Origin: a virus
Taxonomy: Duplodnaviria > Heunggongvirae > Uroviricota > Caudoviricetes
Reading direction: 5' to 3' (one strand)
IMG/VR virus record: IMGVR_UViG_2909303794_000005
Length of the DNA: 37,179 nt
This document shows positions 1,295 through 37,179 of the stretch, one piece after another. The notes below the pieces were generated by a model, which saw nothing but the letters and a program-made list of their open reading frames with translations, searched no databases and had not been told where the DNA came from. The first letter of the stretch is position 1. The number at the start of each line of letters is the position of its first letter. The translations under genes and the position numbers were made by a program.

Positions 1295-2974
1295 ATGAAA
1301 ACTAAACTGTATTCGTATATTCGCTTCTCGTCTATGCGTCAGAGTGATGGTTCGAGTTATGAACGACAAATCAGGATGGCGAGAGAGATTGCGGCAAAGT
1401 ATGACCTTGAACTGGTAAATGATTATCAGGATCTGGGTGTATCTGCGTTTAAGGGTGCTAACTCCAAAACAGGGGCGCTATCTCGTTTCCTTGATGCAAT
1501 TGGTAGATCCGTTCCTGTTGGTAGCTGGCTATTCATCGAGAACTTGGACCGTTTATCCCGTGCCGATATTGTCAGTGCGCAGGAGTTATTCCTTTCAATA
1601 ATCCGTAGGGGGATAACCATTGTTACTGGCATGGATAACAAGATCTACTCGCTGGATACTGTTACCGCTAATCCGATGGACCTGATGTTCTCCATCCTTT
1701 TATTCATCCGTGGTAATGAGGAAAGCCAGACTAAGCGCAATCGTACTAACTCAAGCGCATTGATTAAGATTAAAGCTCATCAAGAAAATCCACAAAATCC
1801 GGCAGTGGCTATCGAGGAAGTTGGAAAGAATATGTGGTGGACTGATACCACTTCCGGTTATGTGCTGCCTCATCCGGTGTACTTCCCTGTTGTTCAGGAG
1901 ATTGTGGAATTACGGAAGAATGGACGTTCAACCGCCGAAATACTGGATCACCTTAACGAGACATATGCACCACCACCAGCGGTTAGTAATAAGAAGCATT
2001 CAAAATGGTCACGGGCAATGGTTGAAAGGTTGTTTCATACCCGCGCTTTGATTGGTATCAAGGAAATATCTGTAGATGGCGTTAACTATGAGTTAAAGGA
2101 TTATTACCCTCGTGTTATTGATGACCCTACGTTCTATCACCTTAAGAAAAATATTGGTGCTAGAGCATGGAACTTTGGAGACAAGGAAGAAGTTAAACCG
2201 ATCCCCCTGCTTAGTGGTATTGGCCTATTGAAATGTGATCATTGCGGTTGCGCTATGGTTAAAGTGAAGGGAACGAACAAACGTTCTGACCAGTATCGTT
2301 ATACATGTGATGCGACCCGTTCACGTAGACTTGATTGCGAGCATCCAAACTGGAGTTTTCGAGGTGATCAATTAGAGAAAGCTGTATTGCAATTGCTGGC
2401 TGATAAAATCTGGATTGCTGAGGACAAGGCTAATCCGGTTCCGGCGTTGAAAGTACAGGTTGATGAAATATCACGCAAGATTGATAACCTGATTGCCCTT
2501 TCTGCTATGACAGGAGCAACGAAGGAGCTAGCCGATCAGATTACTACCCTCAATAGCGAGCGTGAAACACTCTACAATCAGATCAAGATGGCAGAAGAGG
2601 AAATGTATTCTGTTGACTCTCAAGGCTGGGAGAAGCTCGCAGAATTTGATTTAGAAGATGTTTACAACGAGGAACGACTAAAGGTCCGGTTTAAGATTAA
2701 GCAAGCTCTAAAGCGGATCGGGTGTAGCAGGATTGACAGAAACAAAAACTTGTTTGTACTGGAATACATCGATGGAAAGACCCAGAGAGTTGTAATAGAA
2801 AATTCAAGAGGAACGAGGAAAGGACAAATCTTTGTCGATTTGAAGACCATCAATGATAGGCAGATTCTGGAGAGTAACGGGCTTGTTCTGCATCCATGTT
2901 TAGACATGCTGACAGATAAAGACTGGAAACCAGAAGAGGAAATACCAGGTCCATTACAGGAATTTGGAATTTAA
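1295..2974 (+). CDS. large serine recombinase (serine integrase/resolvase superfamily)
   Basis: N-terminal resolvase catalytic motif YIRFSSMRQ...RQ, Cys-rich zinc-ribbon segment CDHCGC...C...C, C-terminal coiled-coil; 559 aa is typical of large serine recombinases. Confidence 0.85.
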   Translation: MKTKLYSYIRFSSMRQSDGSSYERQIRMAREIAAKYDLELVNDYQDLGVSAFKGANSKTGALSRFLDAIGRSVPVGSWLFIENLDRLSRADIVSAQELFLSIIRRGITIVTGMDNKIYSLDTVTANPMDLMFSILLFIRGNEESQTKRNRTNSSALIKIKAHQENPQNPAVAIEEVGKNMWWTDTTSGYVLPHPVYFPVVQEIVELRKNGRSTAEILDHLNETYAPPPAVSNKKHSKWSRAMVERLFHTRALIGIKEISVDGVNYELKDYYPRVIDDPTFYHLKKNIGARAWNFGDKEEVKPIPLLSGIGLLKCDHCGCAMVKVKGTNKRSDQYRYTCDATRSRRLDCEHPNWSFRGDQLEKAVLQLLADKIWIAEDKANPVPALKVQVDEISRKIDNLIALSAMTGATKELADQITTLNSERETLYNQIKMAEEEMYSVDSQGWEKLAEFDLEDVYNEERLKVRFKIKQALKRIGCSRIDRNKNLFVLEYIDGKTQRVVIENSRGTRKGQIFVDLKTINDRQILESNGLVLHPCLDMLTDKDWKPEEEIPGPLQEFGI

Positions 2975-3047: not shown

Positions 3048-4223
3048 TTAGGCAGCGTCTAAGAGAGTATTAAAGTATTCATCCATTAAATCAGGACTGT
3101 CGTCATCAATACAGAAAAATTCTGGTTTATTGATGCCGTAGAAGTGAGTATGTAGCTTGAATGTATCCTCATCAAATACATCTTTCGGAGATACCCACAT
3201 ATTAGCCTCGTCCGGTTGATTGGTTAGGTAGTCATAAACCAGTTGTTGTAAGTGTGGTAACTCATCAATAGTCAGAGTTTCCGACCATCCATCCTTGAAA
3301 TCTTTGTAGGGTGCGGCGTGAGTCTTGAAGCGTTGTTTTACTTCATGCTCTAAATCGGCAGCTTTCCAACCATCCTCAAACTCATGAGTAAAGATTAAGC
3401 GGTGAGTGAAGTTGCTCTTTCTGGTTTGTTCTCTCATTCGTTCTTCTGGTTTTCGGGTAGTGATTCCAAATTTAATAAATTTGTCATCTAATAATTGAAT
3501 GTAGAAACTAGCCTTACCCTGATAAGTCCGGTTAGACAGTTGCACCAGTTGGTCTTTAATGCAAAGCGGACAAGTGAAAGAATCAGCACATCTTAAATGA
3601 GATTCCCATTCGTGGTTATGTGACTTGCAATAGGTTTTAAATTTAACATCCTTTAGGTGTGGGGTGTTTATGATGAATCCTTTGAAGATGTAAGGTGTAG
3701 TCTCGCAACGTGCATTGATGAGTGTCTCTTTGTCCTTAATAACTTCATCAAAAGTCTTGCCACTTCTTACCCGTTGGGATTTTTCAGCCATACAGATTTT
3801 ACAATCAAAATCAAAATCATCCTTGAGAGCATGTAATAGAGATGGCGTCATGATTTGATTGTGTATAGGACACAAAACACGGGCTTTTGTCTTGTTGCGC
3901 CCTTTCCATTCTCCTTGCCATCCTAGAAACTTCTTTCCCTTCTCATTACAACGAGATTCCATTTTCAACCATACAGCCTTTTCAGTCTGGAATAACTCAC
4001 CCCCGTTAGTATCTTCCAGTTTGCGTAATTTGTAGTCCTTATATTCTTGTGTGTCTAAATTGTATAACCGGAAGTAAGTATGATTACCTTTCCACGGTAG
4101 GATAAATCCACCAAATACAAAAGTAGGTTCCAGTTTAGTGATGATTCGTTGTTGGTACTCTTCCGGCGATAAACCGCGAGTTTTCTTAACAAAAGGAATT
4201 TCGGCAGCGTAAGCAAGTTTCAT
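3048..4223 (-). CDS. T5orf172/GIY-YIG-like domain protein with Cys-rich zinc-ribbon-like region
   Basis: Start chosen at internal ATG (MKLAYAAEIPF) with RBS GAGGA 7 nt upstream, not the upstream ATG of the 428 aa ORF. Motif FYIQLLDDKFIKFGITTRKPEERMREQ...DGWSETL matches the T5orf172 pattern from memory; CxxC pairs in the N-terminal half. Confidence 0.45.
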   Translation of the reverse strand: MKLAYAAEIPFVKKTRGLSPEEYQQRIITKLEPTFVFGGFILPWKGNHTYFRLYNLDTQEYKDYKLRKLEDTNGGELFQTEKAVWLKMESRCNEKGKKFLGWQGEWKGRNKTKARVLCPIHNQIMTPSLLHALKDDFDFDCKICMAEKSQRVRSGKTFDEVIKDKETLINARCETTPYIFKGFIINTPHLKDVKFKTYCKSHNHEWESHLRCADSFTCPLCIKDQLVQLSNRTYQGKASFYIQLLDDKFIKFGITTRKPEERMREQTRKSNFTHRLIFTHEFEDGWKAADLEHEVKQRFKTHAAPYKDFKDGWSETLTIDELPHLQQLVYDYLTNQPDEANMWVSPKDVFDEDTFKLHTHFYGINKPEFFCIDDDSPDLMDEYFNTLLDAA

Positions 4224-4378
4224 AGTAGTTTCCTCTAAAATAATAAGCTCACTACTATTTATTAGAGAAAATTGTCTTACTATTGCATTCTCTATCTGAA
4301 TGTGTATAATACGCGACCCTAAATCCCAAACCAACCATATTGAGGTTATGCCTATAAGTTAAAAAAAGTGAGGTCTAT

Positions 4379-19136: not shown

Positions 19137-22100
19137 TTATTTAGTTGCTTTGAGTTCGGCAATTTCTTTCTGTAATGCTTCGATCTGGGCTTTATATTTG
19201 GCGTCCATTTCCTGAATAGCTTTAATAATCAAGGCATTAACAGCGGAGTTAGAAATTGTTAAGATCTCTTCTGGCTTATCTGGATCTCCGATCTTTGAGG
19301 TTGTTACTGCTTCCGGCAATTCTTTTTCAAGATCCTGAGCAATAATACCAACTTCATGAGCAATGACAGTACGGTCGGTTAAAGACTTAACCTTATCGTA
19401 GGTGTACACAGTCAAGCGATTAATTTTATCGGTTGCATTCTCTTTATACTCTTCCTTGTTGATTTTAAGGCGAGCATCAGAACGAATATACACATCGTTA
19501 AAGTTACCATTGCGACCAGCTTGGAAATCACCGGAGGCGTTAAAGTCAAAGTTTGTGGTATGAATATGAAGACGTGCCATAGCATTAGTAATAACACCAC
19601 TAGGAACGTGTACACCCATTGCTGCGATGTGGTCTAAACCCCATTTGGTCGCTTTCCATACGTTATATGCGGAAGTTTGAGCATTAGGACAATCAACCAA
19701 TAAGCCAGCAGCGCGAGTTTTCCATTCTGACCATGCACCACCTTGTACTTCTCCGCGAATCAAACCACGGTCGCTACCGTTTGCATACCCACGTTCTAAG
19801 CGAATCATACCAGTCTGGAAAACATGGTCAAATTCTCCGCTGTTATAGTTTCGAATGCGCATTTGACCTGTGCTATCACCCCAGATAACACCACGGTTAG
19901 TACCATTAGCATCCTTAAACCAGAGTTCTTTATTACCATCTCTATACATCTGAATTTGGTTATTGGTACGCAAAACATTAGTAACCACCAAATCACCATT
20001 TATCTGAGCACGACCACCCGTTTCTAAACTACCAGCAACTCTGAATTGAATCGAACCGTTAGAATCACGCTGAGAATATAGATGATAGCTTGTTTCGTCA
20101 GCAAGTTCCCACACCTGAGCGCGAGAAGTTCCATTACCCCAATTCTTAATAAAAAATCTAGATGCAGATCCTTCGCTACGTTCCCAATATAATCGAGACC
20201 CTAAATGTGTTGTTGCATTTATTTCTACTTGACGATTTTCATTGTTGAGACGCATTAAATGATTACCAGCATCACTACCACCTAGTGTAACGTTACCATT
20301 GGCTAGGCTATAGATGAACGGCCTAAAGGTATTCCACGGACCCATAGTGTCGCCTGATTTTGTGCTCATCAGATAAACGTTACTACCGTCATTTCGCCAC
20401 CATGAACCATAGTTACCATATACAGTACGGAAGCCATCAGCATATAAAGAAATGAATTGACCGTTGGTATAGACTCGCTTCATGTTACCTGTCTGAAATT
20501 CGATCTGTCCGTCGATATGTTGACGAATAGAACTGCCACCTACATCGCTATACCATTCAAAAACGTTAGTATCAGCATTGGCATAACCGATCCAACCTTG
20601 ACGCGTAATATTTCCAGTCCGGTTATCTTGAAACGCAATGTGGTTAGATTGACCAGCAGGTCGGCGTAGTGTAATGACATTAGATCCGCCATTTAACAGC
20701 ATACGACCAGAAATAATATTACCCTTATGAGTTCCGGCAATTGAGCTACTAGATTCAATAGTCATAATTTCCTGAGCATCAGTGCTACCAGTAGCCAGAC
20801 GATAGCTGGCACCTTGAACAGTCTCATGCCAGATCATTTCATTATAGTTACTACGGAATTTACGAATATATTTTCGTCCAGTACCCCTATCATTACTCAA
20901 GTGAACAATATCATAACTGTTTTGTGTGTTATCGTCAAAACTCAACACACCACGTTTATTTTCAGTATTAAAAAGAGTTACGTTGCGACCACCGATAACA
21001 CCAACGGAAGGTTTAATTAACGTGGCTTCCGGCGTATCATAAACCGTCAAACTTACATAAACAGATTTCCCATATTCGACAATAACGTTATCGGTATAAC
21101 GCTGATATTTCACGTAGATATCATAGTTATCACCGGAAGTATTGACAGCAAATACCTCAAAATCTTTGTTTGTATTTCTACGGTATGCAATTACGTTAAG
21201 ACCTTTAGGTCTATCGTTACCACTACGCAGAAGAATTTCTACTACGTCAACCTGATCATATGCCGTAACGTTGTAACCATTACCACCATGAATACGGAAA
21301 AACACACTACGCCCGTTTTGTGGAATTGTTGCGGTTGCCAATTTGAAATATGCAGATACGTTTTCGCTAGAATTAGGAACAGACATAGTGACGTTTTTAA
21401 CAAACATCTTGTCAACTTCTGCTTTAGTGTATGCACCGATTTCGCCAGGAGTCGGCTTATCACCTTCGTGATACATCTTATAGCTAAAGTTCTTCTGTCC
21501 TTCTCTATCAAAACCATAGGTTTCAACACGAGATCCACCAGACGCATAACGGAAAGTAAATCCGCGACCGTGAGCTTTACCGGCAGAGTGAGGAACGTTA
21601 AGAGTTAGATCCATGAGTCCATCTTGACCATTGGTACGGAAAGCACCAAAGTAGTTAAGATCTCTCGCTGTCTGGTCTTCCAAATAGTTAGCTGTTTTGG
21701 TTAACAGATACCCGCCGTGCTTAGTGTTGGTATTCTTCTTGATGTAAAGAGCATCGTTACTACCTTCAATACCATCAATTCGACGGTTAGCGGCTGCGAT
21801 CGCTGAATCAGTATCAGTTTTGTTTTTGTCAACCTTTGCGTTAATAGCGGTATGGTTGCTATTCACCGTCCCTGTAAGGTTACTGATTTTAGTATCAGCA
21901 TCGCGTTTATTGTTCGCTACCGTAGTTTCAATGGCTGATTTGTTAGCTGCAACGGTACTCGTTAAGCTGGAGATCTTGGAATCAGCATCAGACTTGTTAG
22001 CTGTAACGGTTTTGGTCAGATTGCTAACATTGGTGTTAGTGGTATCAACACGGCTATTGATCGCGGTGTTATTGTCATTAACCGTCGTGGTTAAAGCTGC

Positions 22101-22577
22101 GATTTTATTGTCCGCATCTCGTTTATTATTTGCTACAGTAGTTTCTATAGCTGATTTGTTAGATGCAACTGTCCCCGTAAGGTTATTGATCTTAGTATCA
22201 GCATCGGTTTTATTTGCCGTGACTGTCTGGGTTAAGTTACTAACCGTGGTGTTAGTAGCATCAATGCGCTTATTGGTCGCTGTATCTTTCGTGGTAATAG
22301 TCTGATTCAGTTCAGCTTTAGCACTAGCCAGATTATTAGCGGCTTCTTGTTTGTTGGAAGCAATAACACGGTCAGTGCTAGTTTTGTTATTGTCTACTTT
22401 AGTGTTAAGTTCAGCGTGTTTTTCTGGAGAAACACTAATTTGGACTACGTTATTATTTTTGTCTTTGGTGTAAATCACATGATCCGCCAACTGTAAGGCG
22501 ATTTCACCCTGTGATAATTGTTCCGGCGTTGGCTTTTTACCAGCCGTCTGTGTGCGTTTAAATTGGATCGACTGCAT
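19137..22577 (-). CDS. tail fibre with C-terminal intramolecular chaperone (peptidase S74-like) domain
   Basis: RBS GTGAGGTGA upstream; 1146 aa; C-terminal SDARLK...LTDRTVIAHEVGIIAQDL...AVNALIIKAIQEMDAKY resembles the self-cleaving chaperone domain of T5 L-shaped fibre / endosialidases as recalled. Confidence 0.8.
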   Translation of the reverse strand: MQSIQFKRTQTAGKKPTPEQLSQGEIALQLADHVIYTKDKNNNVVQISVSPEKHAELNTKVDNNKTSTDRVIASNKQEAANNLASAKAELNQTITTKDTATNKRIDATNTTVSNLTQTVTANKTDADTKINNLTGTVASNKSAIETTVANNKRDADNKIAALTTTVNDNNTAINSRVDTTNTNVSNLTKTVTANKSDADSKISSLTSTVAANKSAIETTVANNKRDADTKISNLTGTVNSNHTAINAKVDKNKTDTDSAIAAANRRIDGIEGSNDALYIKKNTNTKHGGYLLTKTANYLEDQTARDLNYFGAFRTNGQDGLMDLTLNVPHSAGKAHGRGFTFRYASGGSRVETYGFDREGQKNFSYKMYHEGDKPTPGEIGAYTKAEVDKMFVKNVTMSVPNSSENVSAYFKLATATIPQNGRSVFFRIHGGNGYNVTAYDQVDVVEILLRSGNDRPKGLNVIAYRRNTNKDFEVFAVNTSGDNYDIYVKYQRYTDNVIVEYGKSVYVSLTVYDTPEATLIKPSVGVIGGRNVTLFNTENKRGVLSFDDNTQNSYDIVHLSNDRGTGRKYIRKFRSNYNEMIWHETVQGASYRLATGSTDAQEIMTIESSSSIAGTHKGNIISGRMLLNGGSNVITLRRPAGQSNHIAFQDNRTGNITRQGWIGYANADTNVFEWYSDVGGSSIRQHIDGQIEFQTGNMKRVYTNGQFISLYADGFRTVYGNYGSWWRNDGSNVYLMSTKSGDTMGPWNTFRPFIYSLANGNVTLGGSDAGNHLMRLNNENRQVEINATTHLGSRLYWERSEGSASRFFIKNWGNGTSRAQVWELADETSYHLYSQRDSNGSIQFRVAGSLETGGRAQINGDLVVTNVLRTNNQIQMYRDGNKELWFKDANGTNRGVIWGDSTGQMRIRNYNSGEFDHVFQTGMIRLERGYANGSDRGLIRGEVQGGAWSEWKTRAAGLLVDCPNAQTSAYNVWKATKWGLDHIAAMGVHVPSGVITNAMARLHIHTTNFDFNASGDFQAGRNGNFNDVYIRSDARLKINKEEYKENATDKINRLTVYTYDKVKSLTDRTVIAHEVGIIAQDLEKELPEAVTTSKIGDPDKPEEILTISNSAVNALIIKAIQEMDAKYKAQIEALQKEIAELKATK
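19140..19481 (-). other. intramolecular chaperone domain of tail fibre (predicted autoproteolytic release)
   Basis: Begins at the Ser of IR-SDARLK (residue about 1033); domain boundary inferred from the family motif. Confidence 0.55.
21831..22265 (-). repeat. in-frame tandem repeat in tail fibre N-terminal shaft
   Basis: Two near-identical 72-73 aa units (DATNTTVSNLTQTVTANKTDADTKINNLTGTV... and DTTNTNVSNLTKTVTANKSDADSKISSLTSTV...) with about 24 aa sub-periodicity. Confidence 0.6.
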
Positions 22578-28484: not shown

Positions 28485-30392
28485 TTAGAACGATGTTACC
28501 CAACTACGGCCTCTATTTGGACGTCTGGCGATGTTTTTACGTTGTGGTCGTGTGATTGGCTTAGTTTCTTCGATTTGCTCGTTAGATTGCGATTTAGGAG
28601 CTTCTACGGGTTCTTCGACAACACGGTTTAAGCTGTCTTTCATTGCAATGAGTTTATCCCATGACATTTTTGAAAGGACGTAGCGAGAAGCCGCTGTAGC
28701 ATACACGGCGCAGTCGAGCGCCTCGTTTCGTGTCGCACCTGGATTTTTTACCCATCTCACGCCAGTAGTAGTACGCTTAACAGATTCACTTAAAAGCTGA
28801 TCGAGATAATCATCAGGAACGGTGTCTGATATTTCTAAGGCAATATGAGGATTATCTTTCAGGTTCCTAGCCAACATTTCACGAAATGCAGTTTTACCCA
28901 CGTTAACACCCAACATAAGCAATTCATGACCACCTGTGCGGGTAGGTTTAACCGGAATGATCGGAGCGTTACCAGCAGAACTACCTTTGATAGCGTGTAA
29001 GTTCTTCCACTTGCCGCAAATACGGTATCCAGCTTGAGTGAATCGACCGTTCGATGTATCAAGGAAGCTGGCGAGCATAGGAACACGATCACCCGATACA
29101 GTAGTAAATTTGGTTTTATGGAAGTTGATTAATCTATCCCATACAGGGGATTCATATCGTTCACAGTTATGATCGTAAAAGCTACGGTGATCCAGAATGT
29201 AAACCTTATCTTTCGCTACACCTAAGATGGTAGTTTCTGCGCGATCTAATTGCTGGTCAGTACCCGCACATAAGAAAATCACGTCATCAGGGATATTCTC
29301 GATAGAAACATCTGTTTTGAGTTGTTCCAGTTCATTTGCTTCTACTGCCGTGTCCTGATCGTCGTATACCTTACCTAACACGGTGTTATAAAATGATTGT
29401 AAATCAAAGGATTGCCACGCATGACTAAAATCAACCACACAAGCGCGGATACTACTGAAAGGTGAATACAGACGGCTAATCCAGAATCCTGCTACCTCAC
29501 TTTCACGGGTTGCTCTCCACTCTCCTTGTGCTACTGCCCTGATTCGTTCCCCTTCTGTCCATGCGTTCTTACAGTGGGGGCAAATATAACGAGCGGTATC
29601 AGGATCGGGTAAGTTCTTACCATCGATGTTACGCCATTCAAATTGAACGTTTTCCCACTCGATCACCTGGTGTTCCCCGCAATGAGGACACGGAACAAAA
29701 AACATACGCATATCGCTTGATAACCATTGCTGGTTAATGCTTCCCAGCTTACTGGTCGGGGTACTGGATACGACTAATCGACCTTCATCGCCAAAGGTAG
29801 TTAAACGGTTAGCAGCCAGTGCCACCGGATCACCTTCTTCTGAGGCTGTAGCAGCATCGATTTCGTCAAGCAATCCAACCTTTGCGGTCTTACCACGTAG
29901 GGTCGATGGACTGGTTAGCGATACCATGTAAAGGAAGTGATTCGTTTTTAGCTGGAGTTGGTTATTGTTGTTAACCGCATTGCGATCATTCTTGTCTGTA
30001 ACAACGTCTTTTAATGCATCACATGCTTCGATAGACGGTCGGATCTTACCAGCGAGATATTGAGACATTTCTTTAGCGGTTGATTGTCCGATAATCATAT
30101 TGCATGGATCGTTAGCCATCTGGTTAAACAGGATGCCGTTCAGGATGGTAGTCTTTCCGATCTGCGCACTGGTCATCAGAACATACTTTTTCTTATTCTC
30201 AAGGAAAGGAGCATCAATCATGCCTTTCTGGAATGACAGCAATTTAACTTTATCCCCAGCTTGAGGACCATCTACCAGCACCATATTCGCTTCGCACCAT
30301 TCCGATGGAAGGAGTTTAGGCGGTGGCGTAATATATTTGGCTGCATTTCTGAGAATCTTTTTTAATTTGGCCTTATTAGAAATCAGTTTCAT
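28485..30392 (-). CDS. terL: terminase large subunit (lambda gpA family)
   Basis: Walker [10 protein letters not shown], paired CPHCGEH...CPHCKN zinc-finger typical of GpA-type terminases, C-terminal nuclease region; RBS GAGGGT upstream. Confidence 0.9.
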
Positions 30393-30477
30393 GTAATTAC
30401 CCTCATTACGAAATATGAAGGTATTTATTAAATTGTTGATATTTTGATAAATACGGGTATTAATTAAAGGGGGTTGT

Positions 30478-31080
30478 ATGCTAATTAATCAGCAACAAAG
30501 AGATGAATTAGAATTAGCCTTGTCTTGTACCGATCATGAATATCGTTTGCCAGTTAAGCATAAGCATTTAAAAACCGACTACACTACATCTGGCTTTAGT
30601 CGTGAGGAAGCGAAAGAGATTTTAATAGAATTTTACCGCGATAATGGTTATACAGACGTTCACAACTTCTTTAAGAAGCATAGAACATCGCATACAGAGT
30701 TTCGGAGAGTCCGAGATTGGTTTGATTTTGATATCAAGCGTTATTATCGCATTGATGACGGTCCTATCTATCGGTTGCAGTGGAAGCCGATCCGAGAAGT
30801 GTTGAAACAGAAGAGATTGAATCACGCAATTACACGCTATCGTAACGAGGCTTTCAAGAAAGGCTATGGTGATACAAGGGAACTATTCGTTGAACTCGCT
30901 AACGTGCGTTATAGCCACTATTACAACGATCCTAAAGGGTTCTTTGAAGTGCTTCGCAAGGTTGATATTAGTCGGGGTACATACTATTCACGGTTGAAGA
31001 AGTACGGGATTAAGGCAGAGTTCTTTATGTCGGTTGACGATGGAGAACTTTTTCCTATAAAATGTAAGTCCTCTAAATAA
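30478..31080 (+). CDS. hypothetical DNA-binding protein with C-terminal HTH-like motif
   Basis: RBS AAAGGGGG; C-terminal [15 protein letters not shown] resembles the HTH of the two small proteins at 31116 and 34720. Confidence 0.45.
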
Positions 31081-31115
31081 AGGTGAACATTCACTTTAAT
31101 TTGGAGAAAATGACT

Positions 31116-31343
31116 ATGACTACTAAAGCTACTCGCGGTCGCCCTGCCCGTTTTAACGCTGAACAGATGGCTGATATTGCCTACGCTTACTATACAGCGG
31201 ATCGTGGTAAGGAAGCGAAAGAACAGATTCTTAGTGAACATGGGATCTCAATCGCCCAATTCTATAAGAATATGAAGAAGTTAGACATTAAATTCTATGT
31301 TCAGATCGGTGATGGTCAGATCGTAGAAGCAACAGGTTTTTGA
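31116..31343 (+). CDS. small AT-hook/HTH DNA-binding protein
   Basis: ATG 31116 has better SD spacing (GGAG 9 nt upstream) than in-frame ATG 31110 or GTG 31083; KATRGRPARF (AT-hook-like) and GISIAQFYKNMKKLDIK (IS3 OrfA-like HTH). Confidence 0.5.
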   Translation: MTTKATRGRPARFNAEQMADIAYAYYTADRGKEAKEQILSEHGISIAQFYKNMKKLDIKFYVQIGDGQIVEATGF

Positions 31344-31358
31344 GTTTTGATTCTCTTT

Positions 31359-31382
31359 GCCACTCTTCGGAGTGGCTTTTTT
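31359..31382 (+). terminator. rho-independent terminator
   Basis: GCCACTC TTCG GAGTGGC (UUCG tetraloop) followed by TTTTTTG. Confidence 0.7.
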
Positions 31383-31473
31383 GTATGTAAAACAATCTCG
31401 CCAGTTTTGGTGAGATCTATAGATGCCCTCAAAATTGAGGGGATGTACTCAACTCTGAGCGCATCTACAGATA

Positions 31474-31499
31474 CAAAAAAGCCCCTGAAATTCAGGGGC
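31474..31499 (-). terminator. rho-independent terminator after Rha-like operon
   Basis: 9 bp arms GCCCCTGAA / TTCAGGGGC followed on the minus strand by TTTTTTGTAT; the arm sequence is the same motif as the 34017-34201 iterons. Confidence 0.55.
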
Positions 31500-31507
31500 A
31501 AAAATTA

Positions 31508-32338
31508 TCACAGTCCGAAGACTTCCAGTGATCCAACATTCTGGCGGAGACGTTCAGCTGCTTTATTTTGAATCAGAATAGTGTTGTTCGGCTTAGGAAG
31601 ATTCAGAGTTGCTTTTTGTTCTTCTTCCAGAACACCCAATTCAACCAGCACCGGAAGCACATCAACAGTAAACTCAAGCTGGTAGTGAGCATTCATGCGG
31701 CAGAAAGACAGAGAAGAGTCATTAGCAACATACCCACACGGCTTGTTATTTTCATCATAGACGCGCTCAATGTAGCCAGCAGTACGCAAGGCCGTCAGTG
31801 CTTCTTTAACCTTCGTAGCGCCCTTTTTAGCGCCTAACAGACGTGTCATAGAATGGCTATCTACGGATTTGCGAATGTGTAGCTCAATCAGTTTTTTATT
31901 TTTGCGTTTTTCATCTAATGCCAGTTCGATCCAGTCTGTTTCTTCAAAGTGTTCATATGGATTAACCGGAACATTAGCTTTACCTTCTTTCATCAAACGC
32001 CATTCTTTAGCAATTTTGAAGCGAAGCGGTGCATCGTATCCCATAACCAGAGTATTACAGAGATCTTCATCCAGTTCATACATCGGGCGAGATTGATTAT
32101 TCTTATCAAAATATGAAGATTCTACAAAATACCCCAGCGCAAAATTGCGCCCGGCTAATTCGCTTCCTTTTTCAAGAGAATCAATCATGCGACGAAAATC
32201 ACGCATAACATCTTTATGATTCTTTCCGGTCAATTCAGCAATCTGACGGGTAGACATGGTCAGCGGTTTGGTGTTATCAACAACCAGAGACACGGAAGCA
32301 GTTTTAACAGCAGTATTCATAGTAGTAACAGTATTCAT
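31508..32338 (-). CDS. Rha-family phage regulatory protein (antirepressor-like)
   Basis: N-terminal TMSTRQIAELTGKNHKDVMRDFRRMIDSL matches the Rha-domain pattern as recalled; RBS AAGGGGA upstream. Confidence 0.7.
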   Translation of the reverse strand: MNTVTTMNTAVKTASVSLVVDNTKPLTMSTRQIAELTGKNHKDVMRDFRRMIDSLEKGSELAGRNFALGYFVESSYFDKNNQSRPMYELDEDLCNTLVMGYDAPLRFKIAKEWRLMKEGKANVPVNPYEHFEETDWIELALDEKRKNKKLIELHIRKSVDSHSMTRLLGAKKGATKVKEALTALRTAGYIERVYDENNKPCGYVANDSSLSFCRMNAHYQLEFTVDVLPVLVELGVLEEEQKATLNLPKPNNTILIQNKAAERLRQNVGSLEVFGL

Positions 32339-32427
32339 AGTATTAATTCCCCTTAAACGGTTTAATGATTTGGTCCTCCTAGTTCCGGCAGCATCACCGG
32401 AACAATTTTATTTATAATAGAAATTTA

Positions 32428-32760
32428 TTACCAATCGATTTCTACTTGGTCTTCTTCATAATAAGGAATCGCATATTCATAACGCCAGTTTTCGATGATT
32501 TCACGTTCTTCATTAGTAAGAAGGTGATTGCTAACTGGAGTCGCATTGTGATTACCAGCTTCGAATTGTTCGCGAACTTCCAGCATTGCATGAATACCAG
32601 TTAAGGACATCAGATCAAACGGAACATGCATACTACGGGAGATTGTTTCACGGGATACGCCCCAATCATTTTCTACATGGCTAGGGCTTACAGAAACGGT
32701 TTTGCCGGAGATTTTAACAGTCCAGTCATACAGGGATTTAGTGATGGTAAATTCTTTCAT
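32428..32760 (-). CDS. hypothetical protein
   Basis: RBS AAGAGGA upstream; 110 aa; first gene after the promoter/operator at 32817-32858. Confidence 0.45.
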   Translation of the reverse strand: MKEFTITKSLYDWTVKISGKTVSVSPSHVENDWGVSRETISRSMHVPFDLMSLTGIHAMLEVREQFEAGNHNATPVSNHLLTNEEREIIENWRYEYAIPYYEEDQVEIDW

Positions 32761-32816
32761 GTTACATCCTCTTTACAAATCTAGGTCAAATAGGTTCAAA
32801 GTTGTCAAGTGCGATA

Positions 32817-32845
32817 ATCATAAAAAAGTCAGAAAATTTTGTCAA
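32817..32845 (-). promoter_or_regulatory. sigma70-type promoter (minus strand)
   Basis: Minus-strand TTGACA, 17 nt spacer, TATGAT; about 55 nt upstream of the 32760 start. Confidence 0.5.
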
Positions 32846-32858
32846 TACCCCTTGACAA
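32839..32858. promoter_or_regulatory. palindromic operator-like site overlapping the -35 element
   Basis: TTGTCAA TACCCC TTGACAA, perfect 7 bp inverted repeat; more TTGAC/GTCAA half-sites at 32790-32880. Confidence 0.45.
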
Positions 32859-32880
32859 GACGCCAAAGGGTTGACCTAAC

Positions 32881-33333
32881 TTACAGCATATCTAAGCCTT
32901 CATCGTAACCGTAGAAGCCATTCTGAGAAGAGAAACAGATTGGCGCGTAGTCGTCGTCATCTTCGTCTTGTTCATCTCGTTCTGGGGCTTCCTGAGCGGG
33001 TTGTTTACCATAATCAGCCATAATCTGGTCAAGATCGGCGATCCCATAGTAAGAGCCTAAATCAACGTCATATTCACGAACATCAAACGGCAGGTCATCA
33101 CGAACAATAATTGCCGGAATGTTGTTGTATTGTTCACGACCTTCATCAGTAAAGCAGTCTACGATCACCGTAGGGCGACCATTACGTTTAAGAGCATAGA
33201 AAGCAGTTGAGAAATTGGAGTCTTCGGAATGACGAATGATGTTATAACCACGATTAGCGAAAACATGCATCATAGCCAGATTATCATCATGGTTCAGACC
33301 CAGAAGAATGAAAGGAGTTTTAGTATTGATCAT
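32881..33333 (-). CDS. hypothetical acidic protein
   Basis: RBS AGAGGA upstream; 150 aa with Asp/Glu-rich C-terminal region. Confidence 0.45.
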   Translation of the reverse strand: MINTKTPFILLGLNHDDNLAMMHVFANRGYNIIRHSEDSNFSTAFYALKRNGRPTVIVDCFTDEGREQYNNIPAIIVRDDLPFDVREYDVDLGSYYGIADLDQIMADYGKQPAQEAPERDEQDEDDDDYAPICFSSQNGFYGYDEGLDML

Positions 33334-34016
33334 AGTGGAAATCCTCTAAAAAGTGAATCAAAGTAAGTTCACTATTATTTATAACGAGAAATTTTTGTCT
33401 AATTTGAAAGGAATTGGTATTCAGTCGGCTTCGCCTCCTTCATAGATTTTGATTAAATCATCATCAAAACGAAGAAGTATCTTTAGAATATAAGAATCTT
33501 TCTTTTGGAGAAATAATAATCCGGAAGCAATTTAGCAACCGAAGGTTGCAATCCCGAAGGGATACCAATACCTTTCATGATCATTAAAGTGATCTAGAAT
33601 CATCTAGTAACCAGTTAACTACTATTATCTTCAAAGTGATTATTACTATCTTTCTAGAATCAGTTAGTAACTAGTTTAAAATCCCTTTCAAGAAAATCCT
33701 TTCAAAAGTGATTCTCGATGCCACGCAGTGGCGTCGCAGACGTTTGAGAGTGAGCGAAGCGAGCGAGCAAACTAGTTAATTCCTTCTAAGACCATCTAGT
33801 ATCATCTAGTTTAAATTAGTGTTACTAGAAGTAATTGGTTAGCGCTTCGCGCAGTCGGGCTACGCCCTCCTAATATCTTTTTGGTTATTTGTTGTTTTTG
33901 GTTTTACACATGAGCGTAGCGAATGTGTTATATAATATCTATGCACGCCCGATTCCCCGTTTTTGCCCCTCACTAAGTTAATGTTTTATAAAGAGTTTTT
34001 CTTACCAATCCTTTTC

Positions 34017-34201
34017 GGGGGCAAATTTCAGGGGCAAAAATTAGATTTTCAGGGGCAATTATTGGCATTTCAGGGGCAAAAATGAGGGGCAAAATCACCG
34101 TTTCCCAGAATTTCAGGGGCAAAAATATTGGGTTTCAGGGGCAAAAATGGGATGTGGAATCTAGGGTATTTTGGTTCAGGGGCAAAAATTCAGGGGCAAT
34201 T
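34017..34201 (+). repeat. iteron array: 9 direct copies of (TTC)AGGGGCAA(AAAT)
   Basis: GGGGCAA cores at 34018, 34031, 34052, 34073, 34086, 34116, 34138, 34179, 34193, spaced 13-41 bp; an inverted copy at 33961-33969. Confidence 0.8.
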
Positions 34202-34240
34202 TTCATAGTGTAGGGCTAGTGTAGGTTTGAAAATCCTTTG

Positions 34241-34298
34241 TTGACACTGTGTAGGATCGGTGCTACACTTGACAATTAGAGAAAAAATGTGGTATAAT
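34241..34298 (+). promoter_or_regulatory. tandem strong sigma70 promoters
   Basis: TTGACA (34241) -17- TACACT, and TTGACA (34269) -18- TGgTATAAT (extended -10, 34290-34298). Confidence 0.65.
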
Positions 34299-34662
34299 AT
34301 TTGTATTGAAAGTGAAAATTTACCGATTTTCCTTCCTATTGTTATCACCGTGTTAAATTGTTATATGTCTGTGAAGATTTGGATCTGAGAGAAAATCTTG
34401 TAACAAATCTTTACAATTCATAGCTCAATTAATGCTCACCGCTTTAGCAAAAAGTGCTATGCAATTTTCTAAATTGATTGAATAAACATCAATTTGGTTA
34501 ATTCGTGTTCTTCTCTTTAGCAATTCGTGCTGCGGTTTAACACATTTAACACGTCTGATAACATCTGAATAACATTTTAACATATCTCTGTTATAAATAC
34601 ATATATAAGAGATAAATGTGAGGGGTTGAAAAATAAAATACAATCCCCATATAAATAATAGT

Positions 34663-34683
34663 GAGCGGTTAACGCTCTTTTTT
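34663..34683 (+). terminator. weak terminator/attenuator before the 34720 gene
   Basis: GAGCG GTTAA CGCTC followed by TTTTTT, located before the AGGAGG RBS. Confidence 0.45.
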
Positions 34684-34719
34684 AAGAAATCATTAATCCA
34701 CATTGTAGGAGGATTCGAG

Positions 34720-34902
34720 ATGGCACGACCTGTTAAGTTCACTCGCGAAATCATCTTAGAAATGGCTAAACGCTACTTTGAGTTAACGCCGGGTGTGAGA
34801 ATTGAAGAGTGGTTTAAAAATGAGGGTATCGATAAATCAACCTTTCATAAACTCTTAAAGAAGTATGACATTAAAGTAAAGATTACCGCCGAGGTCTGGT
34901 AA
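34720..34902 (+). CDS. small HTH DNA-binding protein (paralogue of 31116-31343)
   Basis: Strong RBS AGGAGG 7 nt upstream; MARPVKF...NEGIDKSTFHKLLKKYDIK parallels RGRPARF...HGISIAQFYKNMKKLDIK. Confidence 0.5.
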   Translation: MARPVKFTREIILEMAKRYFELTPGVRIEEWFKNEGIDKSTFHKLLKKYDIKVKITAEVW

Positions 34903-34944
34903 TAACCTTTCACTGAGAATTATATGATGGCTTTAAAAATAAAA

Positions 34945-34978
34945 AAGCCTCCCTTGTTGCAGCAAAGGAGGCTTTTAG
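34945..34978 (+). terminator. rho-independent terminator
   Basis: AAGCCTCC ... GGAGGCTT stem followed by TTTT. Confidence 0.6.
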
Positions 34979-35021
34979 CATGAAACATTAAAACTAACAC
35001 AGAGTATTCAGGAGTATTTAT

Positions 35022-35963
35022 ATGTTATTTTCCGCTAACTTTTTCACTAACGAAGTAACCAACGCTAAAGCAGTTATCAAATTTGGCACCGAAGCAAACA
35101 AGAAGATTCAGCCGAAAGTTGTTGCTCATGTTTCCTTTGCACAGCAGAAATCCGCTTTCGCTGGCTTTAAAGCACATCGTGAAGCACTGATCGCGGCTGG
35201 CTTTGGTGTTGACGGTAAACTGCCTAACGGCATTCGTAAAGCAATCGACCGCGTTAAACCTGCTAAAGACGTTGCAGTAGACCACATCGTTACTTTTACC
35301 GTTAAGAACTCTTCTGAACTGTTCCACCTGGTTATTGCTGGTGATACTGCTATCGTTTCCGCTCCTAACATGGATTTTCAGGATACCGCTGATTGCCAGA
35401 TCACCTTCGGTCGTCGTAAAGAAGTTACCGGAAAAGCTAAACTGAACTTCACTAAATCCGGCAATCCTTACTTTGCTGTATTCTTTAACAGCCACGCTAC
35501 CGAAAAAGAAGTTGTAGAACTGGTTGCTTATGAAGGTGAAGAGAAAGAACGTATTGAATCTTGCGAAGCATTTCTGGAACTGGAAGCACAGGTGAATGCT
35601 GTTTCTCCTGTTGTAGAAGATCGCTTTGCTGCACTGGAAGCACAGATCGCAGAACTGAAAGCTGCGCTGGAAGAAAAAGACCAGATTATCGAAGCCCAGA
35701 AAGCTGAAATTGAAGAACTGAAAGCTAAAGAAGTTGCTCCGGTGGCAGTAGTTGAAAATGCGGCTGATGAGGCCGCAAATGATGAAGTAGAAGTGAAAAT
35801 CGATGTGATGCGTGATCCGATGGCTGCACTGCAATTACTTCGTTCTTTTAAGGGCAAATCTCATTTTTCTAGTGATGTAGAAGATGAGGAAGAAGAACAG
35901 AAACGCAATGCTGCAATGCTTCATGATGAAATGTACGGTACTAACTTTTCTTACTGCCAATAA
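35022..35963 (+). CDS. acidic coiled-coil protein with host-like (high-expression) codon usage
   Basis: RBS AGGAG 8 nt upstream; 313 aa; heavy use of CTG, CGT, GCT, GGT, GAA, AAA codons unlike the AT-rich surrounding genes; Ala/Glu-rich heptads and acidic C-terminus. Confidence 0.6.
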   Translation: MLFSANFFTNEVTNAKAVIKFGTEANKKIQPKVVAHVSFAQQKSAFAGFKAHREALIAAGFGVDGKLPNGIRKAIDRVKPAKDVAVDHIVTFTVKNSSELFHLVIAGDTAIVSAPNMDFQDTADCQITFGRRKEVTGKAKLNFTKSGNPYFAVFFNSHATEKEVVELVAYEGEEKERIESCEAFLELEAQVNAVSPVVEDRFAALEAQIAELKAALEEKDQIIEAQKAEIEELKAKEVAPVAVVENAADEAANDEVEVKIDVMRDPMAALQLLRSFKGKSHFSSDVEDEEEEQKRNAAMLHDEMYGTNFSYCQ

Positions 35964-35966
35964 AAA

Positions 35967-35986
35967 AGGGACTCCGAAGAGTCCCT
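35967..35986. terminator. bidirectional terminator hairpin
   Basis: AGGGACTC CGAA GAGTCCCT, preceded by an A-run and followed by T-rich sequence. Confidence 0.55.
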
Positions 35987-36060
35987 AGTAAGTTTAGGTT
36001 AGGTTGCACAACAAAGATGAGGTTATAATGAACATAATGCTACATTATCTAGTAAAGCCA

Positions 36061-36087
36061 GAAAAATAACCGCCCCTTTCGAGGCGG
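36061..36087 (-). terminator. rho-independent terminator (minus strand)
   Basis: Minus-strand CCGCCUC GAAA GGGGCGG (GNRA loop) followed by TTATTTTTC. Confidence 0.55.
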
Positions 36088-36245
36088 GAGGATTAATACT
36101 CAATCTATACTTGTTATGTTTTTATGTTGTATAGTCACTGACTATGAAAACACTGTACTGAATGTGTTTTATGGCTTTTAATCGGGAACTCTCTTTCGAA
36201 AATTCCCTGTTAAAACCACATAAGGAGAAATGGCAGATTACAATA

Positions 36246-36530
36246 TTATTTAGTCTGTTTGAAAACAAACGTTAAAAATTCGATTAAGCAATATACCCAG
36301 CATACAGTAAGCAGTAGATGCATAGAAATAGCCGGATGGAAGTTAAAAAGTGTCATACTAACTAGACCAACAATATAAGAAATCCCTTCGACAATTAAAG
36401 CTAGACTAGAAAATGCAACAAACGCACCTAAGAATAATTCAGCACGTTCTCGATTTTCGGTTCCGAGTTTATAAGCAGAAATAACAGCCAGAATAGTAAT
36501 GATGACAGCATAGGTAATAAAAGTAGCCAT
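36246..36530 (-). CDS. small membrane protein with three predicted transmembrane helices
   Basis: RBS AAGAGGA upstream; 94 aa with three hydrophobic stretches of about 20 residues. Confidence 0.45.
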   Translation of the reverse strand: MATFITYAVIITILAVISAYKLGTENRERAELFLGAFVAFSSLALIVEGISYIVGLVSMTLFNFHPAISMHLLLTVCWVYCLIEFLTFVFKQTK

Positions 36531-36556
36531 AGTTTTATATCCTCTTAAAAGTTAAG

Positions 36557-36575
36557 CGGGGGAGAACATCCCCCG
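36557..36575 (-). terminator. GC-rich hairpin after terminase-small-like gene
   Basis: CGGGGGA GAACA TCCCCCG, same hairpin family as 19111-19129. Confidence 0.4.
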
Positions 36576-36624
36576 TAGACGTTGACCCGTTCAACATCTT
36601 TCATACATTTATTTATAACGCGTT

Positions 36625-37179
36625 TTAAGACACATCAAATTCATCGTCTTCTTCTGGTTCTTGTTCTTCCGGTTCATCCATTAATGGTAATTCTTCTTCC
36701 TCGTCTTCTCCCAAATCTGCATTTTCGAACAAGTCCCCTACTTCATTTAAACGACGCTCGATGATCTCCCTTAGCTTATTCTTCAATGTTTTCTGATCAG
36801 TGGCAGATTCAAGAATTTCTAAAGCGTCGATTGTGGCGATCTGCAAAATAGTCTGTTTCACCTTCCCGCAATATTCCGCTAGTTCCTGTTCTACATAACC
36901 GACCGGAATCAGGAGATTCATTGCTTCCTGGTTCTCTCGTTCGGCTGCATCCGCTAATGCTCTCTCACGGCGTAATTTCTCTACGTCGATTTGTTCCTTG
37001 ACAGTAGTTTCTTTAAGCGGGTTGATAATATTTTTCAAGACCCATTCTGTTCCTTCTTTGGCTGGCACGCGTCGTGTATTGGTATTAAATGGCATTCCTC
37101 GTTCTTGCCATTTCTTAGCGGCGTTGATTGTATAGCCGTATAAACGGGAAATTTCTGTAAGGGTTAATTCTTCTTTCAT
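36625..37179 (-). CDS. terminase small subunit-like protein (Nu1-type HTH); start at or beyond window edge
   Basis: N-terminal LTLTEISRLYGYTINAAKKWQERGMPF then EKLRRERA resembles lambda Nu1 (winged HTH, W.E.GMP) as recalled; acidic C-terminal tail. Confidence 0.55.
   Translation of the reverse strand: MKEELTLTEISRLYGYTINAAKKWQERGMPFNTNTRRVPAKEGTEWVLKNIINPLKETTVKEQIDVEKLRRERALADAAERENQEAMNLLIPVGYVEQELAEYCGKVKQTILQIATIDALEILESATDQKTLKNKLREIIERRLNEVGDLFENADLGEDEEEELPLMDEPEEQEPEEDDEFDVS

Follow-up and report, generated by a model that had tools for sequence, protein, structure and literature searches.

A phased direct-repeat array in an Escherichia coli prophage and the orphan protein family with which its motif co-varies

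Introduction

Repeat arrays in phage control regions are routinely called "origin" or "operator" without evidence, and the locus described here raised the question of what such an array is and which protein reads it. The window (the whole 37,179-nucleotide stretch of DNA that was analyzed; IMG/VR record IMGVR_UViG_2909303794_000005, Caudoviricetes) consists almost entirely of one ~37 kb E. coli prophage with ycdX as its insertion site, and its long non-coding region carries an array of short direct repeats. A preliminary description made from the sequence had assigned this array the architecture of a replication origin or of a multi-site operator, and had named the neighboring small helix-turn-helix proteins, the Rha-like protein, and the small terminase (TerS) as candidate binders. 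Natural recombinants provide evidence on this question: the array is real, conserved, and helically phased, and only the protein of a single gene slot, occupied in the window by the 313-residue p313, co-varies with its motif.

Results

Structure and conservation of the array

The array consisted of nine direct (TTTC)AGGGGCAAAAAT copies on the + strand at positions 34017-34203, with start-to-start spacings of 13, 21, 21, 13, 30, 22, 41, and 14 between cores, and a lone inverted copy upstream (Table 1). The nine direct copies and the inverted copy of the preliminary description were confirmed both by these coordinates and by the excess of AGGGGCAA, which occurred 11 times in the window compared to an expected 0.75 ± 0.85 (100 shuffles, none of which reached 11). 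The repeat unit spanned ~12-16 nt, with the informative positions (T)(T)(T)(C/G)A-GGGGCAA-AAAT in 24 sites pooled from three lineages.

The core was invariant across the E. coli relatives, the Salmonella locus L145, and the distant relative L140. Among 12 close E. coli relatives, varying columns made up 6/108 of the core versus 13/80 of the spacers (P = 0.026), while the window and L145 were identical at 99/108 core versus 58/80 spacer positions (P = 0.0006) with the spacing preserved. The L140 locus, encoding a p313 homolog of 47% identity, maintained seven AGGGGCAAAAAT copies and the upstream inverted copy, although its array spacers could not be aligned with those of the window and its spacing was different. 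The inverted copy was also kept in L145 and was degraded in the close relatives L113, L052, L107, and L009, and the A+T-rich spacer between it and the array included a block, TGTTTTATAAAGAGTTTTT, that was conserved between the window and L145 and is a possible bend or unwinding element. Helical phasing was identified in three lineages, with a resultant of 0.79 at 10.8 bp in the window (P = 0.013 versus random placement), 0.89 in L140, and 0.87 in L145 (periods of 10.7-10.8 bp; P = 0.003-0.013 over the three), and in all of them the sites lie on one face of the helix. Judged from these alignments, the array is a conserved element under selection.

Motif types and the protein that they track

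Syntenic relatives were fetched via the p313 and TerS proteins, and every one of them carried a direct-repeat array at the equivalent position with a lineage-specific motif. The GGGGCAA array was present, in 6-9 copies each, in 15/15 loci with a p313 homolog (47-100% identity) and in 0/18 loci with another protein in the p313 slot. Arrays of (TA)GTGTAGG in 6-11 copies were found in 13/13 loci with p339, a protein unrelated to p313, and GGGGCAA occurred there at most once. Further types were an ACTAGAA/ACTAGTA array (~20 copies) with p328, a GGAATCCGGGGG / GTGGAATCCGGGGG array (6 copies) with p386, and an ACGGGGA array (~18 copies), while L169 displayed two adjacent distinct arrays, CCTTGTACATC and CTAATACCGGGG, together with two tandem paralogs in the p313 slot. 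The ~30 loci thereby held at least six motif/protein specificity types, and the motif followed one gene only, coding for the ~300-390-aa protein encoded 3' of p60. With p60 in between, the array and p313 have stayed paired through recombination between them, which favors functional coupling over mere linkage. The array is very probably the cognate multi-site target of the p313-slot protein, with which it would form a higher-order complex on one helical face.

Units of foreign motif types were also found in and beside GGGGCAA arrays. The window carried two GTGTAGG copies just 3' of its last repeat and a unit of the p386-type locus L142, corresponding to the GGAATCTAGGG type, within its longest gap (Table 1), and L140 held two GTGTAGG copies between its GGGGCAA copies 6 and 7. 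Such sequences suggest that arrays evolve as heterologous arrays recombine with one another.

Natural recombinants and excluded binders

The Salmonella loci L145 and L146 were 99% identical outside a block comprising the p3xx gene, p60, the leader, and the array, and encoded an identical TerS protein (P0181) next to different arrays, GGGGCAA in L145 and GTGTAGG in L146. A 99% identical TerS was similarly found in E. coli prophages with either array type. In L052 and L107 the promoter, leader, and p60 had been replaced and the array and p313 (99% identical) kept, with the mosaic joint immediately after the last repeat and before the promoter.

The remaining neighbors were uncoupled from the motif as well. 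Next to a constant GGGGCAA array, identities ranged over 48-100% for Rha and 62-100% for p86 and were either 55% or 99% for the large terminase (TerL), and p150 varied independently of the array type, with near-identical p150 and Rha alleles accompanying different arrays. The p200 protein was 47-53% identical in L140 and L145, where the motif is kept, and equally 53% identical in L146, where it is not. Reference-type p60 alleles (83-98% identity) occurred with GGGGCAA and GTGTAGG alike, as did the 55-62% types; GGGGCAA loci encoded p60 of 57-98% identity and GTGTAGG loci included alleles of 83-88%. The p60 protein was considered as the GTGTAGG binder and rejected, since GTGTAGG arrays were found with both p60 classes but with p339 only. 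A reading of the array as a cosB-type site bound by TerS was pursued since TerS was the best-conserved neighbor (74% identity between the window and L140) and was dropped on the L145/L146 pair, in which identical TerS with different arrays rules out a cosB-type packaging site. The binders proposed in the preliminary description consequently do not stand, as the alleles of the small helix-turn-helix proteins, Rha, and TerS do not follow the motif and the co-varying 313-aa orphan was not among them; its view that a packaging role was unlikely is borne out by the same TerS comparisons.

The p313 protein and its slot-mates

The p313 protein was composed of a basic beta-rich N-domain (~residues 1-160, isoelectric point [pI] 9.6), a coiled coil (~182-236), and an acidic tail, the part beyond the N-domain having a pI of 4.3. 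This architecture was common to the slot-mates, which displayed a basic N-domain of ~165 residues (pI ~9.6 in 7/8), a central coiled coil, an acidic linker, and an exchangeable C-terminal tail of a few kinds. An AlphaFold (AF2) model built on a 13-sequence alignment was beta-rich with helices over residues 1-155 (pLDDT ~65-90) and showed a helix at 182-236. Searches of Pfam, PHROG, NCBIfam, and the PDB (phmmer and profile) with p313 yielded coiled-coil noise only and a fold search generic beta-barrels only. The family was tiny, with 12 matches among 1.8 billion representatives, two of them repeat-protein artifacts, and a scan of species-representative genome contigs with the p313 alignment gave no match. 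In the rightward early operon, the p313 gene directly followed a helix-turn-helix gene of Cro size.

The co-variation together with the charge of the N-domain suggests that p313 binds DNA directly. At roughly even odds, p313, p339, p328, p386, and p371/p363 form an unrecognized class of modular DNA-binding proteins with sequence specificity, in which every member has a phased array of its own, an N-domain without a detectable fold relative, and a coiled coil followed by an exchangeable acidic tail; arrays and proteins together would constitute the origin/initiator or immunity cassette of an undescribed E. coli/Salmonella temperate phage lineage lacking a known initiator or CI-type repressor.

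Most p313-slot proteins ended in ...AA (VRRAA, ARAA, LKAA, AYAA; loci L140, L145, L146, L159, L165 at 3224-4249, and L169), one ended in YAYAYAYAYAYAA, a repeat expansion, and p313 of the window ended in ...FSYCQ, while the product of an optional gene after p3xx ended in ...P(S/T)LRLV(A/S). The ...AA and ...LRLV(A/S) ends resemble ssrA-like degradation tags or clamp-binding tails, a similarity of sequence offered as a lead only.

Promoters, leader, hairpins, and terminator

The long non-coding region previously described around the array was confirmed, and the tandem promoters within it were real consensus matches (12/12 with TG, TTGACA-18-TATAAT, at 34269-34298; 10/12 at 34241-34269) that were nonetheless not constant neighbors of the array, being missing beside it in L145 and replaced in L052/L107. 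Measured from the array end, the nearest rightward promoter was 27-37 bp off in both the window and L140; in L146 this gap widened to ~155 bp and in L145 to at least 230 bp. Array sites never overlapped a -35 or -10 element. A palindrome, GTGTAG-N7-CTACAC (34249-34268), overlaps the first promoter of the window. In L140 (9166-9194), L145, L146, L142, L143, and L052, a consensus promoter had its -35 element inside the palindrome TTGACA-N3-4-(T)GTCAA, followed by AAC-TTTTTTATAAT; from its sequence this palindrome is likely the operator of a conserved dimeric regulator.

The untranslated leader retained its layout and parts of its sequence in the distant relatives L140 (9195-9492), L145, and L146 at a length of ~300-420 nt, and no credible Rfam match was obtained for 30300-37179. 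The leader could be an attenuator or a regulatory RNA. RNA-based immunity was considered because no protein repressor was recognizable, and is conceivable by analogy with P4.

Upstream of the array, a series of G+C-rich hairpins at 33420-33930 (e.g., 33720-33732 and 33857-33867; 8653-8665 and 8781-8791 in L140) displayed GNA-type triloops with C-G closure, such as GCGAAGC, GCGTAGC, GCCAC-GCA-GTGGC, and GGGC-TAC-GCCC. Compensatory stem changes from the window to L140 (GCCAC/GTGGC to GTCCC/GGGAC and GGGC/GCCC to GGCC/GGCC) indicate that the hairpins are conserved as structures, either of RNA or of single-stranded DNA. The palindromic copy of the motif reported in the terminator at the 3' end of Rha is real, but it is independent of the array: the same hairpin was found in p339-type prophages without a GGGGCAA array and without p313, marking it as an ordinary terminator outside the array system.

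Prophage organization and distribution

Lysis, tail, and head genes were encoded on the minus strand up to the gpA-type TerL, and the other landmarks are given in Table 1. The p60, p86, and p200 proteins were paralogous small helix-turn-helix proteins with the pattern (G)RP..F ... (S/T)..F.K(L/M).KKY.IK (30478-31343, 34720-34902), of which p200 contained two copies. Transcription of p200 and p86 opposed that of the flanking genes, and lysogeny genes are often transcribed against their flanking genes. Protein family searches recognized no replication initiator, primase, or polymerase in the prophage, only a UvsW-like helicase, and detected no CI/LexA-type repressor anywhere in it.

Table 1. Coordinates of the array, its associated elements, and prophage landmarks in the window.
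Feature	Position	Strand	Remarks
Array cores, A-GGGGCAA-AAAT	34017-28, 34030-41, 34051-62, 34072-83, 34085-96, 34115-26, 34137-48, 34178-89, 34192-203	+	
GGGGCAA core starts	34018, 34031, 34052, 34073, 34086, 34116, 34138, 34179, 34193	+	
Inverted copy TGAGGGGCAAAA	33961-33972 (core 33963-33969)	minus	45 bp upstream of array
A+T-rich spacer	33973-34016		~70% A+T; from inverted copy to array; carries conserved block TGTTTTATAAAGAGTTTTT
GTGGAATCTAGGGTATTTTG	34154-34173	+	Inside 41-bp array gap; one copy of the L142 (p386-type) array unit
TAGTGTAGGGCTAGTGTAGG	34206-34225	+	Two GTGTAGG copies, the motif forming the whole array in p339-type prophages
Tandem sigma-70 promoter matches	34241-34298	+	
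Untranslated leader	34299-34719	+	~420 nt; terminator-like hairpin 34663-34677 and T run just before p60
Non-coding region	33334-34719		~1.39 kb
p60	34720-34902	+	Small helix-turn-helix protein; first gene of rightward operon; in swapped block; not the specificity partner
p313	35022-35963	+	313 aa; predicted cognate binder, encoded 0.8 kb downstream of array
Genes 3' of non-coding region			p60, p313, p94, then Nu1-like TerS
Nu1-like TerS	36625-37179		Right prophage end
Palindromic terminator, Rha 3' end	31481-31499		Perfect 15-mer copy of the repeat, TTCAGGGGCAAAAAT, at 31491-31505
Small genes after TerL			6-kb block: p200, p86, Rha, p110, p150
gpA-type TerL	28485-30392		
Large serine recombinase	1295-2974		Left prophage end
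GIY-YIG/CapR protein and UvsW-like helicase			Left prophage end

The prophage family was present in 62/5,426 complete E. coli genomes and this GGGGCAA array in 32/5,426; all terS matches (64/64) and array matches (36/36) in complete genomes were chromosomal with none on a plasmid, and in the strains examined the element was integrated by the serine recombinase. No close sequenced phage was found. Nucleotide comparison of the region with 50,697 phage records returned only an 80-bp match to RB49-like intergenic DNA; the region had no plasmid match either. Excised or virion-derived contigs were sought for DNA ends, and the two candidates, a 37-kb Logan contig and a 35-kb IMG/VR metagenome contig, both had non-phage flanks. 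A literature search for a ycdX prophage produced nothing relevant.

The 80-bp match involved positions 33439-33521 of the non-coding region, with 76-81% identity to unannotated intergenic DNA of 59 RB49-like (Krischvirus) T4-type phages. Mobile promoter-plus-stem-loop cassettes (PeSLs) are known from RB49-like genomes (PMC2839356), and this segment may be a PeSL-type cassette common to the temperate prophage and virulent phages. Within the tail-fiber gene (open reading frame 19137-22577, minus strand), 2.5 kb at 19206-21710 had 84-93% nucleotide identity to gp37, the distal long tail fiber gene, of RB49-like and other T4-type coliphages, which at the sequence level indicates a receptor-binding module exchanged recently between the temperate prophage and virulent myoviruses. 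The tail-tip gene and the lysis region were separated by an inserted IS1 transposase (8549-9246; Pfam DDE_Tnp_IS1, E = 2.9e-77), and given this insertion the present prophage copy may be damaged.

The terS gene formed a separate transcription unit at the prophage end, 6 kb from the TerL gene. Prophages with >95% identical TerS encoded TerL of either ~99% or ~55% identity, so head modules have been swapped while the small subunit stayed in place. In the phage collection, the closest TerL (45% identity) belonged to Escherichia phage DCP80 (L001, PQ671644.1), a 141-kb record that is classified as Straboviridae yet opens with gpA-type terminase and head genes, and this record may be chimeric or misclassified.

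Discussion

The proposed origin or operator architecture stands in that the array is a conserved, phased, protein-paired multi-site element of iteron or operator type. The preferred reading is an iteron-type replication origin with p313 as its initiator, with a probability of about 0.4, and we infer direct binding by p313, wrapping, and origin function in the following form. The basic N-domain of p313 would read the asymmetric 12-nt site AGGGGCAAAAAT and the coiled coil would link subunits, such that p313 on sites of one face (phase ~10.7 bp) would bend or wrap ~190 bp into one complex, with the lone inverted site across the A+T-rich 45-bp spacer. This complex would be the replication origin and p313 the origin-binding initiator, akin to lambda O and the ori iterons or to iteron plasmids. 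An origin is favored because the sites are asymmetric and lie head-to-tail at about two turns, with an inverted copy across an A+T-rich spacer, and because the p313 gene is placed as O is in lambdoid phages and no other initiator was found. Lambdoid phages carry their replication genes after the Cro-like gene in the rightward early operon, and initiator and iteron specificities are known to co-vary.

The lambda ori/O system shares with the present one phased A-tract sites and a phage-encoded binder whose N-terminal domain shifts specificity with the sites, the rest of the binder being shared or shuffled and its gene following a Cro-like gene in the rightward early operon. It differs in having four ~19-bp internally palindromic iterons inside O, compared to 7-20 asymmetric 12-nt non-coding sites upstream of the operon, and neither a detectable similarity of p313 to O or winged-helix initiators nor a P-like helicase loader was found here. 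Iteron plasmids (R6K gamma ori/pi, pSC101, P1 oriR/RepA, and F oriS/RepE) likewise have head-to-tail repeats at about two turns upstream of the binder gene, flanked by A+T-rich DNA and accompanied by one more copy in inverted orientation, and they too fall into many specificity (incompatibility) types. Their 17-22 bp units contrast with a core of 12-16 nt and an irregular spacing of 13-55 bp here, where in addition DnaA boxes and IHF sites are not consistent, the binder is not a Rep_3/RepA-type winged-helix protein, and the element is an integrated prophage.

Several observations weigh against an origin. DnaA boxes were inconsistent, with one TTWTNCACA in the window and L140 and 0 in L145, L146, L142, and L143, and so was the IHF consensus, for which the spacer-equivalent match was found in L140 only. 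No strongly A+T-rich unwinding element lay beside the array, the flanking spacer being only ~70% A+T, and the GC skew merely followed gene orientation. Arrays of ~20 sites, as in L143, are large for an origin, and p313 matched no known initiator family, neither winged-helix Rep nor lambda O. The co-variation is possibly in part linkage, though recombination between array and gene is documented. Finally, the double array with paralogs in L169 and the number of specificity types suit immunity-type diversification at least equally.

This last point bears on a rather unlikely but serious alternative, in which the array is a multi-site operator or immunity determinant, p313 a Mu c-like repressor or silencer that would coat the phased sites, loop or wrap the control region, and decide which related phages are kept out, and the motif types heteroimmune alleles. 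Many co-varying motif/protein types exist, a feature also expected for origins, their block is swapped as a unit, and L169 with its two paralogs and two arrays would fit. The array is situated in a divergent early control region, where in the window and L140 it stops 27-37 bp short of a consensus promoter, and no CI/LexA-type repressor was detected in the prophage. Mu operators are themselves multiple asymmetric repeats with an IHF site, distributed over ~200 bp of the early control region and assembled into wrapped or looped higher-order complexes, and Mu c is built of an N-terminal DNA-binding domain, a coiled-coil/leucine-zipper oligomerization region, and a C-terminal tail. In Mu, however, both the early and the repressor promoter are overlapped by operators, with the repressor gene next to them in divergent orientation, whereas here the sites lie off the promoters, p313 is encoded 0.8 kb downstream of the array and past a terminator in an apparent lytic early operon, and no sequence or fold similarity was detected. 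The variable distance to the promoter and the absence of the window's promoters in L145 also argue against an operator, as do the GTGTAG...CTACAC and TTGACA...TGTCAA palindromes, which overlap promoters and are better operator candidates. The ...AA ends of many homologs, as a lead only, could mean instability and would count on the same side.

A centromere-like or tethering site, or an architectural element such as an insulator between divergent early units, is improbable. Type II/III centromeres typically consist of direct repeats placed ahead of an operon, to which protein binds cooperatively along one helical face, and R1 parC/ParR and pBtoxis tubC/TubR resemble the present locus in their short direct repeats upstream of an operon with a small DNA-binding first product, to which the measured phasing and the coiled coil of p313 may be added. 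Unlike in those systems, no actin-, tubulin-, or Walker-type NTPase was found in the operon or prophage, p60, p313, and their counterparts included; array type changes independently of the small helix-turn-helix protein; and the element resides in the chromosome, integrated in the strains examined by a serine recombinase.

Binding of the repeats by the small helix-turn-helix proteins (p60, p86, p200) or Rha is very improbable: they are the sole neighbors with recognizable DNA-binding motifs and p200 is 91-99% conserved among close E. coli relatives, but their alleles are uncoupled from the motif and L145 and L146 differ in array while agreeing outside the swapped block. A cosB/pac-like packaging site for TerS that positions the gpA-type TerL has next to no probability, for although a PHROG-57 TerS with a Nu1-like N-terminus accompanies that TerL and the inverted site, bendable A+T-rich spacer with an IHF-like site, and direct sites recall the R3-I1-R2-R1 layout of lambda cosB, the motif is independent of TerS and of TerL alleles, nine sites compare to three, and terS lies not beside the array but 2.4 kb off, reading toward it (convergent) with terminators between, while the 360 bp upstream of terS (L122) contained no motif copy.

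Conclusion

The element is of a classical kind, that of phased repeats and a binder that co-varies with them; no description of the binder family, the prophage lineage, or the exchange of cassettes joined at the array borders turned up in the searched libraries. Natural recombinants exclude the terminase and every recognizable DNA-binding neighbor, and single out an orphan family, confined to a narrow enterobacterial prophage group, as partner of the array. If confirmed, p313 would bring a DNA-binding fold that is new and has at least six mutually orthogonal specificities, and a prophage lineage found in ~1% of complete E. coli genomes would gain its missing determinant of replication or immunity. 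The diversification of this lineage would likewise be explained, through swaps of cassettes whose joints fall at the array borders. The alleles found in nature would then offer ready-made orthogonal pairs of protein and DNA site.

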